Source: Candidatus Limimorpha sp.
Lineage (GTDB): Bacteria > Bacteroidota > Bacteroidia > Bacteroidales > F082
Assembly (NCBI GenBank): GCA_045117495.1
Contig: JBGUNT010000089.1
Coordinates: forward strand, 75-64,074
Direction: 5' to 3'
DNA: 64,000 bases
Shown: positions 13,435 through 60,464 of the stretch, in pieces
How the letters are laid out: the number at the start of each line of letters is the position of its first letter
How positions within the stretch are numbered: the stretch's first letter is position 1
The notes under the pieces: generated by a model
Seen by the model: only the letters and a program-made list of their open reading frames with translations
Database searches by the model: none
What the model was told of the DNA's origin: nothing
Program-made: the position numbers and the translations under genes

Positions 13435-14027
13435 AGCTTCTCAAATTCTTTTTGCAGTTTCTCCTTTCCCTCAAACAATATCCCCGTAATTCCCAAAGCA
13501 TTCGCTGCTGCGACATTATTCGGATTATCATCAATAAACACCGTCTCCTCGGCCTTAATGCCGAAGCGCTGCAAGGCTAATTGGAAAATCCTCGGGTCGG
13601 GCTTCATCACCCGCTCGATGCCCGAAATCACCATGTCTTCCATAAGGTTGAGGACGGGATAAACAGGTCTTACCAAAGCAAAGGTCTCCTCCGACCAGTT
13701 GGACAGTCCAAACACACGGAAGCCTTTGTCCTTCAGTTCCTTGACCAATTCCTCCATGCCAGGTATCTGTCCGCCCATCATCTTCATGAAGTCGCCGTAA
13801 TATAGCTCGATTTCCTTCTTCCACTCGGGATACTCGGCAATGAGTTCCGCCGTGCCTTCTGCCACAGGACGACCATTGTCGTGTTGGGCGTTCCATTCGT
13901 AGGTGCAGATGTGGGTGAGGAACCATTCGGCCTTGTACACATCGCCGAAATAAGGATCATAGAGGTAATGCGGGTTCCAGTCGAGGAGCACGCCGCCGTA
14001 GTCGAATATAATGTTTTTGATCATCAT
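13431..14027 (-). CDS. HAD-superfamily hydrolase
   Basis: Motif I FDYGGVL and motif IV FIDDNPNN. Start moved to MMIKN because the upstream ORF extension translates a repeat element (PAMTV). Confidence 0.8.
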   Translation of the reverse strand: MMIKNIIFDYGGVLLDWNPHYLYDPYFGDVYKAEWFLTHICTYEWNAQHDNGRPVAEGTAELIAEYPEWKKEIELYYGDFMKMMGGQIPGMEELVKELKDKGFRVFGLSNWSEETFALVRPVYPVLNLMEDMVISGIERVMKPDPRIFQLALQRFGIKAEETVFIDDNPNNVAAANALGITGILFEGKEKLQKEFEKL

Positions 14028-14061
14028 TCCATTTTTACGAAGGACATAACCGAGCCCTTTT

Positions 14062-14197
14062 ACCGTCATTGCGGGCTTGACCCGCAAATCGAAGATTAGC
14101 TACGCTGAATCAAAGATTTCGACGTAGTCAATCTCCTATACGTAAGGGTGTCGTCTCCGCACGTAGGAGATGGCGGATCCTTGTCCGCCATGACGGG
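14062..14197. mobile_element. gene-less miniature element bounded by inverted hairpins (CCGTCAT-hairpin-AATC ... GAGAT-hairpin-ATGACGG)
   Basis: Left end at 14062-14090 has the GCGGGCTTGACCCGC hairpin. Right end at 14167-14197 has the GGCGGATCCTTGTCCGCC hairpin. Same terminal architecture as the two GIY-YIG cassettes at 57.3 and 58.8 kb. Confidence 0.6.
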
Positions 14198-14284
14198 TAT
14201 AGGATGAGTGTTGTTTTACCCGGTACAATGTCCACACTCGTCTATATTTTGCCGCAAAGTTAACGAAAAACTCAAAGAAAACCG

Positions 14285-14292
14285 TATTTTTG
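14285..14292 (+). promoter_or_regulatory. -7 box TATTTTTG
   Basis: 20 nt upstream of the tex ATG at 14312. Confidence 0.5.
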
Positions 14293-14311
14293 CATCTTTA
14301 AACCAGAAAAC

Positions 14312-19787: not shown

Positions 19788-19795
19788 CCGCCGAT

Positions 19796-19892
19796 ACCAA
19801 TAGGGGTGCCTTATCTGCTACGCAGATTGAAAGACAGGCTGAGATCAAACCCTTTGCACCTGATACGGATAATGCCGAAACAGGGAATCGAG
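19796..19892 (+). promoter_or_regulatory. TPP (THI-box) riboswitch
   Basis: Conserved elements AGGGGTGCC ... GCTGAGA ... ACCCTTTGCACCTGATACGGATAATGCCGAAACAGGGAA match the TPP aptamer consensus. Confidence 0.85.
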
Positions 19893-19948
19893 TTCCTCAT
19901 CTTTCCTCTATTGATTTATTGAATTATTAATCATTAAATCAACGAGTT

Positions 19949-33582: not shown

Positions 33583-33694
33583 AATAATATAATTTTAGGT
33601 TTGACATTCAATCCATTACATTAAAATGCTTTAGGGAAACGTGGATACACCTTATGCTATAAGGAAAGCCAGCTCTTGTCCCGAAAGCCTCGTT

Positions 33695-33860
33695 TCGTCG
33701 ACAGGCGGCAGGTCTTCTGACTTACTCCTTGAAGCGGGTCGCCTTCCCGAAAAACAATGTTTTCAGTGGCATAGTGACCAGCGTGAAGAGCTTACAGCAG
33801 CGGGAACTGTCCAGGATTTGCACCCGATTCCCTATTGAGCCTTGAGGCACCGCTTATCGG
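33695..33860 (-). promoter_or_regulatory. cobalamin (B12) riboswitch aptamer
   Basis: The minus strand reads GGTGCC...AATAGGGAATCGGGTGCAAATCC...GACAGTTCCCGCTGCTGTAA...GCCACTG...GGGAAGGC...AGTCAGAAGACCTGCC. The B12 box is at 33707-33722. The expression platform continues to the ATG at 33582. Confidence 0.88.
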
Positions 33861-33863
33861 TTG

Positions 33864-33871
33864 CAAAGATA
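33864..33871 (-). promoter_or_regulatory. -7 box (TATCTTTG on minus strand) driving the B12 riboswitch operon
   Basis: Plus-strand CAAAGATA immediately upstream of the riboswitch 5' end. Confidence 0.55.
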
Positions 33872-42174: not shown

Positions 42175-42262
42175 GGAGATATGGCTGAGTGGTCGATAGC
42201 GGCGGTCTTGAAAACCGTTAAGCCGAAAGGCTTCGGGGGTTCGAATCCCTCTGTCTCCGCCA
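42175..42262 (+). tRNA. tRNA-Ser (anticodon TGA), CCA encoded
   Basis: Acceptor GGAGATA pairs with TGTCTCC. Anticodon loop CTTGAAA. Long variable arm. T-loop GGTTCGAATCC. Confidence 0.92.
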
Positions 42263-42296
42263 AGCGGCAATTGTCGCTTTCTTTTTTTCCTGTTTT

Positions 42297-42382
42297 GGAG
42301 AGATGCCGGAGTGGTCGATCGGGGCGGTCTCGAAAACCGTTGAACGCTTTGCGTTCCAAGGGTTCGAATCCCTTTCTCTCCG
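42297..42382 (+). tRNA. tRNA-Ser (anticodon CGA)
   Basis: Acceptor GGAGAGA pairs with TCTCTCC. Anticodon loop CTCGAAA. Long variable arm. T-loop GGTTCGAATCC. Confidence 0.92.
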
Positions 42383-55864: not shown

Positions 55865-55937
55865 TATATTAAAGTTGAGAGTTTAGAGTTTAGAGTTTAG
55901 AGTTGTGGAAAGTGTAGAGTGTAGAGTTATTGAGTAT
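55865..55937 (-). promoter_or_regulatory. G-free heptamer-repeat leader (CTCTNNA)n upstream of fucP
   Basis: 73 nt with no C on the plus strand. The minus strand reads ...CTCTACACTCTACAC...CCACAACTCTAAACTCTAAACTCTAAACTCTCAACTTTAATATA-ATG. It fills the whole spacer between the kinase stop and the fucP ATG. Confidence 0.7.
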
Positions 55938-57143
55938 CTAAGGGCGGCGGATAGTGAGTGGGATGGATTCGGGGTGGGTTTGGCAGAACGAATGTGCGTC
56001 TTTGACGACGCAGGCAAGATAGCCGCCTCCGCCGGCGCCGGGCATTTTCCAAGCTAGGACATCGGGGATAGCGGAATAGCGTTTGATGAAGTCTTCAATC
56101 GTAGGAGATTGCGGGTCTTCGCCCGCAATGACACCATGGGGGTGAACCATTCCAGGAAACATGGAAGTCTGGGCATTAAACGAAGCTTTGTAGGCCTTAG
56201 CAAAGGCGTCCAAGTCCTTATGCATGATGGCTTGCCAGCAGTCGTCGGCAGCTTGGGCCAAGGCCTTCACTTTCGGCTCGGTGATGTCTTTGCCTTCCAC
56301 CACGGAACAGCCCGGTTGGCGTGGCTCCATGGGAATCATGACGAGATGCTGCTCGAGCCAACTCAAAATGTCTTCGTCTTGACAAGTCTCAATCTTGATG
56401 GGCCAATAGAGTTTGTCGTAATAGTGTCGCACCAGCCCCGGCATGCAGATGCCAATGCTGTCCTGTGCCCCACTGATGATGCCGTCGCTACGCTCCGGAT
56501 CGTTCTCGAAACAGAAGACGAGCTTGGCGAGGGTCTCAGGGTCCATGTCGGGCAGTCGCATCGGCCATATCCTTTTGATCATGTTGCGTGTCGAGGTGGA
56601 GAGGCCGCAGCGCTCGCGCACCTCGAAAGTGGGCTCCAGCGAGATAGTGATGGCCCATCCTGGGGCGAAGCAGGAGACGTAGGGCTGGTCGATCCATGTG
56701 CCGGCGAGGTCCAAGCGGGTGGGAATCTGGCAGAGGTCCTGTTTCAGCGCGGTGGAAGAACGGGCTTCCAACCCTTTGGAGGGGGTGCGTTGCAGCACAA
56801 TGTATTGGATGCCTCGCTCCTCGCAAAACTTACGTTTCGCTTCGGAGGCACCGTCCTCGTTGACCACAAAGATATCAGGCTTCACCCGATCGACAGTGCC
56901 GATGAAATCCATCACGCCGTCGCCATCGTTGATGAAGGCGTCTTTCACGTAGCGGATGGCCTTCACCATGAAGAGGCGCTCCTTTTCGGGATAGAGCGTC
57001 TTATGGTTTTTGTAGTGCAGGATGGTCTCGTCGGAGCCAATGCCCACATAGAGGTCGCCATACTGCGCCGCCTGGCGGAAGAACTCGACGTGGCCGCTGT
57101 GGAGGAGGTCGTAACAACCGCTGACGAAAACCTTCGGTTTCAT
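55938..57143 (-). CDS. fusion of a cytidylyltransferase-fold nucleotidyltransferase and a GHMP-family sugar kinase
   Basis: N-terminal VFVSGCYDLLHSGHVEFF (HxGH). C-terminal GHMP motif II-like CGLSTST and motif III MPGAGGGGY. Start moved to MKPKV. Confidence 0.7.
   Translation of the reverse strand: MKPKVFVSGCYDLLHSGHVEFFRQAAQYGDLYVGIGSDETILHYKNHKTLYPEKERLFMVKAIRYVKDAFINDGDGVMDFIGTVDRVKPDIFVVNEDGASEAKRKFCEERGIQYIVLQRTPSKGLEARSSTALKQDLCQIPTRLDLAGTWIDQPYVSCFAPGWAITISLEPTFEVRERCGLSTSTRNMIKRIWPMRLPDMDPETLAKLVFCFENDPERSDGIISGAQDSIGICMPGLVRHYYDKLYWPIKIETCQDEDILSWLEQHLVMIPMEPRQPGCSVVEGKDITEPKVKALAQAADDCWQAIMHKDLDAFAKAYKASFNAQTSMFPGMVHPHGVIAGEDPQSPTIEDFIKRYSAIPDVLAWKMPGAGGGGYLACVVKDAHSFCQTHPESIPLTIRRP
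56105..56132. repeat. family-B hairpin (GAGATTGCGGGTCTTCGCCCGCAATGAC) lying in frame inside the kinase CDS
   Basis: Nearly identical to the intergenic hairpin at 57708-57738. Translated as GVIAGEDPQSP. Confidence 0.75.
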
Positions 57144-57216
57144 TAGTGTAGAGTTTAGAGTTGTGGTTTGTTGAGAGTTCAAAGTTTAGAGTTGTGGTTT
57201 GTTGAGAGTGTATAGT
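57144..57216 (-). promoter_or_regulatory. G-poor heptamer-repeat leader upstream of the kinase gene
   Basis: One C in 73 nt on the plus strand. A 27-nt perfect direct repeat AGTTTAGAGTTGTGGTTTGTTGAGAGT occurs at 57152-57178 and 57183-57209. Confidence 0.7.
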
Positions 57217-57699
57217 TTAAGAGTTGTTAGTGTCATTTGGTTTGTAGGAGTTGAGGAGGCCTGAGAGAAGACGAGCGTCTTCTTGCCCTTCCTTATAAGG
57301 CACTCTATGGGCCGTACCGCGGCCCTCATCGCGGGCTTGACCCGCGATCTCCGCGATTTCCCCTTTCTCTTCATACGCCTCTTTCACCCCCCGCATATAA
57401 TCAGCATCAACTCCAATGGCTTCAGCCAAATCTTTCCAATCAGGATTAAAGCCATTGATCAAGTCCTCTTTCCACTCTCTACGCCACTTCTTCAGTTGTT
57501 TCTCTCTATGTATTCCAACATCCAAGCGATCATACTCTTCATAATACACAAGTTTTTCAGTATTATACCTGTCAGAGAACCCTTGATTGATGTGTAACTT
57601 ATGTTCTGCAACTCTCCTTTTTAGGTTCCTTGTGACTCCTGTGTAAAGAGTGGTGTTGTACTTGTTGGTTAATATGTAAACGATTCCTTTTGGGCCCAT
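57217..57699 (-). CDS. GIY-YIG nuclease-family protein, copy 1 (C-terminally extended)
   Basis: GIVYILTN...LYTGVT..L..R..EH GIY-YIG core. About three quarters identical by eye to copy 2 over roughly 110 aa. The ORF then reads through the flanking hairpin (EIAGQARDEG). Confidence 0.8.
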   Translation of the reverse strand: MGPKGIVYILTNKYNTTLYTGVTRNLKRRVAEHKLHINQGFSDRYNTEKLVYYEEYDRLDVGIHREKQLKKWRREWKEDLINGFNPDWKDLAEAIGVDADYMRGVKEAYEEKGEIAEIAGQARDEGRGTAHRVPYKEGQEDARLLSGLLNSYKPNDTNNS

Positions 57700-57738
57700 A
57701 GCATTATGAGATTGCGGGTCTACGCCCGCAATGAGGGG
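57323..57738 (-). mobile_element. GIY-YIG cassette 1 bounded by inverted family-B hairpins
   Basis: Left end CCCTCATCGCGGGCTTGACCCGCGATCTC (57323-57351). Right end GAGATTGCGGGTCTACGCCCGCAATGAGGGG (57708-57738). These are reverse complements, with compensatory stem changes. Confidence 0.5.
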
Positions 57739-57851
57739 TTAACAGCATTGAGAGGGGCTAACAACGATTGGATTTACGCACGCAACGAAAGGTTAACAGC
57801 ATTGAGGGGGTCTACATGGATTATGCCAAAAGCCAATGGCCAAAGGTGCGA

Positions 57852-58793: not shown

Positions 58794-58847
58794 TGTTTTT
58801 GTATTTGCTTCTAATACTGCGCTATCGGACAAACCCAAAACGGGAGA

Positions 58848-59301
58848 CCCTCATGGCGGACAAGGATCCGCCATCTCTCACGCTTAGGGTGGCTCTGGAT
58901 CATAATATCCATTTTCATACGCATCTTTTACAGACTGCATATATTCCTCATTCAATCCTATCGAATCCGACAAGTCTTCCCATGTAGGATTGAATTCGCT
59001 TATCAACTTCTCTTTCCATTCCCTACGCCATTTCTTCAGCTGTTTTTCTCTGTGGATACCATCAACGAGAAGATCATAGACTTCATAATACACCAGTTTC
59101 TCTGTGTTGTATCGTTCAGAGAAGCCATTATTAATATGGAGCTTATGCTCGGCCATCCTACGTATGAGGTTTCTGGTCACTCCTGTATAAAGGGTTGTGT
59201 TGTTTTTATTTGTGAGGATGTAGACAATTCCTTGGAGAGGCATAGGAGCGAGTGTGTCGTTTCGTGTCAGAGATCGCGGGTCTGACGCCCGCGATGAGGG
59301 G
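58848..59301 (-). mobile_element. GIY-YIG cassette 2 bounded by inverted hairpins
   Basis: Left end CCCTCATGGCGGACAAGGATCCGCCATCTCTC (58848-58879). Right end GAGATCGCGGGTCTGACGCCCGCGATGAGGGG (59270-59301). Same CCCTCAT...ATGAGGGG termini as cassette 1. Confidence 0.5.
58884..59243 (-). CDS. GIY-YIG nuclease-family protein, copy 2
   Basis: 119 aa with GIVYILTNKNNTTLYTGVTRNLIRRMAEHK. Confidence 0.85.
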   Translation of the reverse strand: MPLQGIVYILTNKNNTTLYTGVTRNLIRRMAEHKLHINNGFSERYNTEKLVYYEVYDLLVDGIHREKQLKKWRREWKEKLISEFNPTWEDLSDSIGLNEEYMQSVKDAYENGYYDPEPP

Positions 59302-59384
59302 TTTGGGGTGTGAGTGGGTCGTTAACGGGAAAGGTTGGTGAGAGCGTTGGATGCAATGCATTTCTACCACGAAGGAATATCCCA

Positions 59385-60464
59385 CTAATCCTCCATGTGT
59401 GTCTTCAAATACAACTTCTTCACAAACCTCATATCATGCTCGACCATGATCCTGACGAGGTCTTCGAAGGATGTCTTGCGGGGGTTCCAGCCGAGGAGTG
59501 TCTTGGCCTTGGTGGGGTCGCCGAGCAGCTGCTCCACCTCTGCCGGGCGGAAGAAGCGTGGGTCGACCTCGACCAGGCTCTTGCCCGTAGCGATGTCGAT
59601 GCCTCTCTCGTCGACGCCTTCGCCTTCCCAGCGTAGGGTAATGCCCACGTGCTTGAAAGCCAAGGTGCAGAACTCGCGGACGGTGTGGTACTCACCCGTG
59701 GCGATAACGAAGTCTTCAGGCTTCTCCTGCTGCAGGATGAGCCACATGCACTCCACGTAGTCCTTGGCATAGCCCCAGTCGCGGAGGGCATTGAGGTTAC
59801 CGAGATAGAGCTTGTCCTGATAGCCTTGCTTGATGCGTGCCGCCGCTAGGGTAATCTTGCGGGTGACGAAGGTCTCGCCGCGGCGTTCGCTCTCATGGTT
59901 GAAGAGGATGCCGTTGACGGCGAACATGCCATAGCTCTCGCGGTAGTTCTTCACAATCCAGAAGCCGTACTGCTTGGCCACACCATAGGGCGAGCGTGGA
60001 TAGAAGGGTGTGGTCTCCTTCTGTGGCACCTCTTGCACGAGGCCAAAGAGCTCGGATGTGGAGGCTTGGTATATCCTGCATTTCTTCTCCAGCCCGAGGA
60101 TGCGCACGGCTTCGAGAAGGCGCAGTGTGCCGACGGCGTCGGCTTCGGCGGTGTACTCGGGGCAGTCGAACGACACCTTGACATGGCTCTGGGCGGCCAG
60201 GTTATAGATTTCGTCGGGTTGTATCTTTTGGATGATGCGAACGAGCGACGACGAGTCGGTCATGTCGCCGTAGTGCAGGGTGAGCAGGCGCTTGTTCTTC
60301 ATGTCGCGCACCCATTCATCGAGGTAGAGGTGTTCGATGCGACCTGTGTTGAACGACGACGAGCGACGGATGATGCCGTGCACCTCGTAGCCTTTTTCCA
60401 AAAGGAACTCGGCAAGGAATGAGCCATCTTGGCCCGTGATGCCGGTGATTAATGCGGTTTTCAT
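59385..60464 (-). CDS. gmd: GDP-mannose 4,6-dehydratase
   Basis: [27 protein letters not shown]. Catalytic YGVAK. Highly conserved throughout. Confidence 0.96.

Follow-up and report, generated by a model that had tools for sequence, protein, structure and literature searches.

A gene-less pair of CGTC-tagged hairpins and two Ssn-like GIY-YIG cassettes in a rumen Bacteroidales genome

The CGTC-tagged REPs were defined by Di Nocera et al. (BMC Genomics 2013) as repeats with a CGTC tag (also TGTC or CCTC) that stays unpaired, a stem of 8-9 bp that opens with complementary A and T, a 4-5-nt loop and a 3-nt tail of consensus CCA (PMC3733652). They occur mostly as HH (tags-outside) dimers, often heterodimers, in which conserved spacers of 20-100 bp end in sequences complementary to one another. 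In-frame intragenic copies are on record, RPE-4 and RPE-6 of the Rickettsia palindromic elements count among the CGTC families, and the superfamily is present in Bacteroidetes (PMC3733652). These repeats were reported to "lack a dedicated transposase", and no associated enzyme gene was found (PMC3733652).

A nuclease that recognizes repeats of this layout was described by Chenal et al. (Nat Commun 2025). SsnA is a 94-aa single-domain GIY-YIG protein that binds the Neisseria NTS (CGTCAT-TCCCGCG…CGCGGGA-ATC…) as ssDNA only, and its cut falls a few nt upstream of the NTS (PMC11893778). Binding depends critically on the C that directly follows the palindrome, and cutting on the 3 nt that precede it; the Ssn enzymes characterized do not cut dsDNA, only the strand reading CGTCAT is cut, and the N. 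meningitidis SsnA does not bind RNA (PMC11893778). The ssn gene is typically flanked by NTS-type repeats, and the authors noted a resemblance to IS elements and to RAYT/REP while leaving open the movement of the repeats or of NTS-ssn-NTS units (PMC11893778). The repeat class (2013) and the Ssn nuclease partnership (2025) are thus known already; new here are a rumen-Bacteroidales family of such repeats and a variant with a G-first stem.

Tagged hairpins and ssn genes in the window

The stretch of DNA analyzed here (64 kb in all, hereafter the window) contains a gene-less element, mini 1 or simply the mini, with the layout CCGTCAT-hairpin…hairpin-ATGACGG at 14063-14196, flanked by the divergent gene starts of HAD and tex. 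A 136-bp gene-less element of this layout had been described in an earlier note on this DNA; it is real, its given coordinates being off by one at each end. The parts of the mini and its surroundings are as follows.

14028-14239: whole block without counterpart in relatives (alignment to L011 and L012)
~14048-14225: full repeat unit of the mini, outer arms AACCGAG… / …CCCGGT plus the hairpin pair (arm alignment, family consensus)
14063-14069: CCGTCAT, left boundary
14064-14086, plus strand: left end, A type; tag CGTCAT at 14064-14069, hairpin TGCGGG-cttga-CCCGCA at 14070-14086
14087-14130: nested 44-nt hairpin insert, bounded AATC…AATC, without counterpart in canonical family members (family alignment)
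14131-14171: central stem-loop ATCTCCTA … TAGGAGAT, inverted repeat I6; conserved and covarying in a 17-member alignment
14166-14195, minus strand: right end, B type; tag CGTCAT, hairpin GGCGGA-caagga-TCCGCC, tail ATCTCC
14172-14189: right hairpin in its plus-strand reading, GGCGGA/tccttg/TCCGCC
14190-14196: ATGACGG, right boundary

The odd left "tail" of the mini, AATCG, is due to the nested 44-nt insert. A 22-nt version of this nested block was seen inside the mini1-type copy of L118 (3560-3672) and a stand-alone copy in L066 (2190-2250), and the block may represent a second tiny repeat family. The CAT of the left tag (14067-14069) gives the HAD gene, whose start lies at 14025-14027, an in-frame upstream ATG, and public HAD gene calls therefore vary (197, 198, 212 and 213 aa). 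Exact-protein look-ups of HAD (198-aa start) and of gmd matched no record.

The mini is a near-palindrome of which both strands fold equally. Its fold is a four-helix junction with a strong z-score on both strands (RNA z = -5.7 and -4.9), and the DNA z-score is -3.4 over the 231 nt from 14020 to 14250 and -7.4 in a second, related pair (mini 2, see below). A search of Rfam, for the window at gathering thresholds and for the mini locus permissively, returned nothing relevant to the element. Elsewhere in the window there are a cobalamin riboswitch, a TPP riboswitch and two tRNA genes (33690-33869, 19792-19903, 42175-42382).

Beyond the mini, hairpins of the same kind were found at three further places in the window, which are listed here together with the inserted blocks that hold them.

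56105-56133, minus strand: singleton end TGTCAT-TGCGGG-cgaaga-CCCGCA-ATCTCC, in frame in ORF 55938-57143
57144-57851: insertion that separates fcl from the downstream gene and holds cassette 1 (the two genes abut in L148, L156 and L194)
57323-57737, minus strand: cassette 1, tags-outward ends around ssn ORF 57217-57699 (160 aa)
58797-59385: block inserted between gmd and fcl, holding cassette 2 (relative to L148, which has a 5-nt spacer there)
58848-59300, minus strand: cassette 2, tags-outward ends around ssn gene 58884-59243 (119 aa)

In the 64 kb there are six exact copies of the motif CCNTCATNGCGG, arranged in three inverted pairs that belong to the mini, to cassette 1 (57323/57737) and to cassette 2 (58848/59300). 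A hairpin-aware regular expression recovered 6 ends in the window against 0.0 expected from shuffles, and a pattern for the whole pair gave one match against 0 expected. A hairpin scan brought the number of ends to seven by adding the intragenic one at 56105-56133 (minus strand). All seven ends align as (C/T)(G/C)TCAT - N-GCGGR - loop - YCCGC-N' - ATCTC, with N/N' and R/Y complementary in every one and with the tags CGTC (2), CCTC (4) and TGTC (1). They form one family and are not two unrelated hairpin types. The right hairpin of the mini agrees with the cassette 2 left end at 27/27 positions, in line with the near-exact reverse complement reported before; the left hairpin differs from the cassette 1 left end in the closing base pair alone. 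Hairpins that bracket the cassettes are indeed paired here without a gene and in the same relative orientation, as the mini is tags-outward like the cassettes. Specifically, the mini is a tags-outward ("HH", head-to-head) heterodimer of the hairpin family bracketing the GIY-YIG genes.

The two ssn paralogs lie within 2 kb of each other, and the ssn ORF of cassette 1 reads through the left hairpin. In Pfam, both the 119-aa and the 160-aa product have GIY-YIG (PF01541) as their single domain. When the cassette 2 protein was searched with tblastn against a plasmid collection, an N. gonorrhoeae chromosome was matched (E=4e-20); PLSDB files two complete 2.17-Mb N. gonorrhoeae chromosomes as plasmids. 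The 94-aa gonococcal ortholog from a chromosome filed in this way (NZ_CP119140.1:1881075-1883741, L232) served as the SsnA comparison sequence. It has Y6, Y17 and E64 as published and sits among nine canonical NTS repeats. BLASTP against this protein gave gapless alignments at 48% identity, with E=3e-30 for cassette 2 and E=1e-27 for cassette 1, where Chenal et al. used E < 1e-10 against Neisseria SsnA as their criterion of Ssn-family homology (PMC11893778). The catalytic Y6/Y17/E64 of SsnA align with Y8/Y19/E66 of the cassette 2 protein. Given this gapless identity and the catalytic residues in register, the cassette proteins are, judging from their sequences, members of the Ssn family. The sole PDB sequence match of the ssn protein was a weak one to the UPF0213 protein 1ZG2 (E=0.24), which places it outside the UPF0213 subfamily. 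Cassette 1 also has short tandem or direct repeats in its outer arms, and others lie upstream of the adjoining transporter gene (57150-57215, 55868-55930, 57738-57830); these are GAGTTTAGAGTT-type units, and CTCAATGCTGTTAACC is present twice.

Filled and empty sites among relatives

The mini is unchanged, as a 100% identical block, in nine same-species contigs with identical Tex, i.e., in 10 strains counting the window, and recent activity is therefore not visible. Two close relatives, L011 (Tex 94% identical) and L012 (92%), have an empty HAD-tex site, GATCAT|TGTCTATATTTTGCC, with synteny kept. The block missing from them comprises 212 nt (14028-14239), so that the empty site asked for by the earlier note exists. 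The mini reached the HAD/tex junction as an insertion, and no intermediate state of this insertion was found among further HAD-tex alleles of relatives. In L010, L228 and L229, the junction (14028-14311) has other occupants, namely Bro-N domain genes and an 87-aa membrane ORF with short tandem repeats. As occupants differ across relatives, the HAD-tex junction is an insertion hotspot, directly upstream of the tex promoter region.

Compared with L148, in which the three genes abut, the window has ~589 and 708 extra nt around fcl, and no ssn gene was found between gmd and fcl or after fcl in any of 80 fcl loci (90-96% identity). The gene that carries the singleton end (ORF 55938-57143) is a 401/414-aa cytidylyltransferase/kinase-like gene, to which the end adds ~36-42 nt, or ~12 aa, in frame (HPHGVIAGEDPQSP). 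This end is missing in five orthologs and kept at the same site in L192 with a compensated stem (GCCGG/CCGGC). The singleton end, the pair and the cassettes are thus all insertion-polymorphic. In every case the inserted block exceeds the span from hairpin to hairpin, with 212 versus 134 nt for the mini and 589 versus 453 and 708 versus 415 nt for the cassettes. The earlier note had proposed looking for target-site signatures at the CCNTCAT and ATGANGG boundaries; no target-site duplication is visible at the mini, cassette or singleton junctions, these boundaries included.

An identical ssn protein (P0177) occupies one fixed locus on 24 contigs, and the cassettes thus do not behave as an autonomous transposon on the move would. 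There are many close ssn homologs, a good number of them on very short contigs, as expected of repeats that break assemblies. Downstream of ssn in L233-L238 there are BIME-like arrays of alternating ends in ~190-nt modules (e.g., L235:2873-3429). Strains with one and the same ssn protein have different numbers of copies (5 to 7 ends), and spurious 89-96-aa ORFs are called inside the arrays.

A dispersed family in other genomes

Species-representative genomes were scanned with the pattern TCATNGCGGRN{5,7}YCCGCNATCTC, which matched at least 119 loci. The matches listed come mainly from Bacteroidales and other Bacteroidota MAGs (rumen, gut, termite gut), and 213 ends were detected in their 826 kb. 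This single-end pattern, which demands both arms, replaced a loose paired-end pattern whose 14 hits on viral contigs were chance matches in GC-rich contigs without hairpins. Among the matches listed, 155 raw pattern hits had N/N' in Watson-Crick pairing in 153 cases (T-A 106, G-C 27, C-G 15, A-T 5) and R/Y in 148. Since the free closing pair is complementary in 153/155 raw hits, a test free of ascertainment, the hairpin itself is under selection. The two bases before TCAT, which were left free in the pattern, were CG in 87, TG in 40 and CC in 7 of the 155 hits listed; most hits thus have the canonical CGTC or TGTC tag.

Tags-outward pairs of 62-149 nt made up 40 of the 49 '+-' neighbors among the matches listed, so that gene-less pairs do recur: at least 40 are present in other genomes, in addition to a second one in some strains of the window's own species. 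This latter pair, mini 2 (L003:4019-4104), is 86 nt long and has the same A/B composition. L003, L006, L007 and L008 (2611-4104) have an extra 440-aa RHS-repeat-like gene plus mini 2 between a YjeF-like gene and HAD, while the window, L001, L002, L004 and L005 are without both.

About 17 of the listed pairs, from different MAGs, form one homologous 82-84-nt family with the layout [TTTTAC]CGTCAT - B hairpin (GGCGGA…TCCGCC) - ATCTCCTA…central stem…TAGGAGA - A hairpin (TTGCGGGTCAAGCCCGCAA) - TGACG[GTAAAA]. In the 17-member alignment, 89.8% of the cells are paired, as against 33-43% with the partners slid, and covariation is above that of all 500 shuffles. The pairing of the terminal hairpins in this alignment is partly circular, the detector having demanded perfect stems, and weight was put on the 155 raw hits. 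Mini 1 also belongs to this family, enlarged by the nested 44-nt block. A mini1-type copy sits at an unrelated locus in another MAG (L118), with homology to mini 1 stopping at ~14224. Many arms share a motif ~30 nt beyond the tag (…ACGGGAA-N12-CC-N-CCTTTTAC-CGTCAT), from which a canonical unit of ~150 nt around a core of ~83 nt follows. In the sequences collected, BLAST found no other copies of the outer arms of the mini and the cassettes as separately repeated sequence; their conservation is at the level of the motif. The mini is therefore a member of a conserved rumen-Bacteroidales family with an ~83-nt core, or ~150 nt with the arms.

Pairs of this family occur in either orientation and at unrelated loci, and one end lies inside a coding region. 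Most pairs (20/25) are found between co-directional genes. Independent cassettes are present in L140 and in L233-L238, where ssn is flanked by ends on both sides, tags outward.

Possible roles and comparison with known systems

We consider the mini to be a gene-less, tags-outward heterodimer of Ssn-related motifs (CGTC-tagged REPs) that was inserted at its site and is a putative substrate or partner of the cassette Ssn nucleases, a reading to which we give a probability of about 0.6. When the DNA becomes single-stranded, in replication, repair or DNA uptake, each mini end would fold into an 8-bp hairpin. By analogy with SsnA, the cassette nucleases (57-59 kb) would bind the strand reading CGTCAT-hairpin-ATC and nick it a few nt outside the tag. 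The mini could then act as a non-coding, trans-acting substrate or partner of these nucleases, much as a REPIN does beside its RAYT, and Ssn cutting might drive the spread or the maintenance of the repeats. One obstacle is that inverted ends combined with an ssDNA-only nuclease leave one cuttable end per strand, so no complete pathway of excision and insertion can be drawn up.

A bolder proposal is that the filled and empty sites (singleton, pair, two cassettes and the strain-variable arrays) are footprints of Ssn-dependent mobility, with Ssn as the missing mobilizing enzymes of the CGTC-tagged REPs. We regard this as possible and rather doubtful. If true, a nuclease without known strand transfer would be at the base of a second partnership of the REPIN/RAYT kind, one with an unrelated mechanism; to our knowledge, no transposition or strand-transfer chemistry has been described for Ssn. 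The locus and its relatives provide natural filled and empty alleles for a singleton end, a pair and a gene cassette. These are concrete substrates and junctions with which Ssn-linked repeat mobility can be tested, and they do not overturn the current understanding.

A serious alternative for the function is a domesticated recognition mark. The hairpins would be host Ssn cut sites that modulate the recombination or uptake of incoming ssDNA, and the pairs would have spread slowly by recombination and been kept for this role. In N. meningitidis, SsnA and the NTS modulate natural transformation, and the discoverers of the system suggest domestication (PMC11893778). A locus-stable ssn within the species and a mini that is invariant among 10 strains fit this idea, as do ends that bracket the surface-polysaccharide precursor genes gmd and fcl, in line with the clustering of NTS around selected genes (PMC11893778). 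On the other hand, natural competence would have to be assumed for this uncultured rumen organism, an in-frame insertion in an enzyme gene is hard to square with host design, and presence/absence at four independent sites, together with dispersed nested and composite copies in other species, demands an insertion process. The domesticated mark thus fits all of the observations while leaving the insertions unexplained, and we hold it to be unlikely as the full account.

Less likely still is a passive structural or regulatory REP (a terminator, mRNA stabilizer, insulator or protein-binding site) that is functionally unlinked to the nuclease. The very stable fold and the location of 20 of 25 pairs between co-directional genes would suit such a role, and roles of this kind are known for REPs elsewhere (PMC3733652). 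Against termination, the mini has no T-tract and no terminator-like site, pairs show no enrichment at convergent gene ends, and with divergent gene starts on both sides of mini 1 termination has no relevance there. The conserved unpaired tag and the C after the stem point to sequence-specific recognition by a protein, ends of this kind border the ssn genes of several lineages, and a role in RNA sits poorly with an N. meningitidis SsnA that does not bind RNA (PMC11893778).

The earlier note had read the mini and the cassettes as non-autonomous and autonomous partners, after the manner of MITEs or of RAYT genes and REPs. Shared ends, the tags-outward arrangement and the empty sites uphold part of this reading, and the RAYT/REP analogy was also raised by the discoverers of Ssn (PMC11893778). 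Other parts do not stand: no target duplication is seen, ssn is locus-stable, the inserted block is larger than the pair, and the mini is not a cassette minus its gene. In its strict form, that of a classical MITE which arose from the GIY-YIG cassette by internal deletion and moves by cut-and-paste with the GIY-YIG protein as transposase, the idea is largely contradicted and very improbable. The ends are common to the cassettes, one of them being identical at 27/27 positions, both kinds of element are tags-outward, and empty sites exist. However, both ends of the mini are of the type on the 3' side of the gene and resemble two different cassettes, and its interior is a central stem conserved across species and not cassette sequence, so the mini did not arise from a cassette by deletion. 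Neither the unseen target-site duplication nor the locus-stable cassettes agree with cut-and-paste, and the Ssn enzymes characterized so far do not cut dsDNA (PMC11893778). As an analogy, the comparison of the mini with MITEs and REPINs is reasonable and partly supported.

The weakest candidate, a cis-regulatory RNA or a gene for a structured small RNA between HAD and tex, could draw on the four-helix junction with its strong z-score on both strands and on the compensatory stem changes, and it has next to no probability in view of an Rfam match that was not found, a near-palindrome of which both strands fold equally, copies in either orientation at unrelated loci and even inside a coding region, and the absence of the element from close relatives with the same flanking genes.

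Among the described systems, the Rickettsia palindromic elements share with the end at 56105-56133 the in-frame insertion of a palindromic repeat in coding genes; they differ in host phylum, and the unit here is a single one of ~40 nt that adds ~12 aa. Like the MITEs of TIR insertion sequences, the mini is short and gene-less, has terminal inverted repeats in common with a gene-bearing element and is polymorphic for presence/absence. Unlike them, it has no target-site duplication and no DDE transposase, and its interior was not left over from the gene-bearing element by deletion. The likeness to REPIN/RAYT (Bertels & Rainey 2011, PMC3116915; Nunvar 2010, PMC2817692) extends to two inverted hairpins with a spacer, which are non-coding and far outnumber a single-locus enzyme gene, and to an enzyme gene that is itself flanked by the repeats and is locus-stable, with largely vertical inheritance. 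The enzyme here is a GIY-YIG nuclease and not an HUH/Y1 tyrosine transposase, and the tag is CGTC and not GTAG.

With the CGTC-tagged REPs (PMC3733652), the repeats described here share the tag variants, an 8-bp stem opening with A/T (AT-N-GCGGR), a short loop, a predominance of HH dimers, often heterodimers, conserved spacers and in-frame intragenic units. The differences are loops of 5-7 nt (5 nt in 120/213 ends among the matches listed) in place of 4-5, a CTC tail in place of the CCA consensus, and ends that flank GIY-YIG genes, as in PMC11893778.

The closest match is the Ssn/SRM system (PMC11893778), in which a tagged hairpin (CGTCAT - palindrome - ATC) likewise brackets a small GIY-YIG gene in inverted copies and in which hairpins far outnumber genes and cluster around particular genes. 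The SRM layout, i.e., an oriented hairpin with a conserved unpaired 5' tag, a palindrome and a conserved C, was found in the window on both sides of ssn, and both positions critical in Neisseria are conserved in the window ends, as the ATC tail and the (G/C)TC tag. On the other hand, the published SRM regular expression HGTCWYN(0-2)YYVSBRHN(0-5)WNVSBRGN(0-2)RNCYNB gave 0 hits in the window and 9 sites in the gonococcal control locus. It misses the window ends because their stems are G-first (GCGGG…CCCGC as opposed to TCCCGC…GCGGGA) and the cassette tag is CCTC, so surveys that use this pattern probably undercount Bacteroidota. The Bacteroidales cassettes are tags-outward, whereas the nearest repeats around the gonococcal ssnA are tags-inward (one locus, L232). 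Relative to the published system (PMC11893778), the host is an uncultured rumen Bacteroidales with two ssn paralogs within 2 kb, and the empty sites found here add evidence for insertion that was not reported there.
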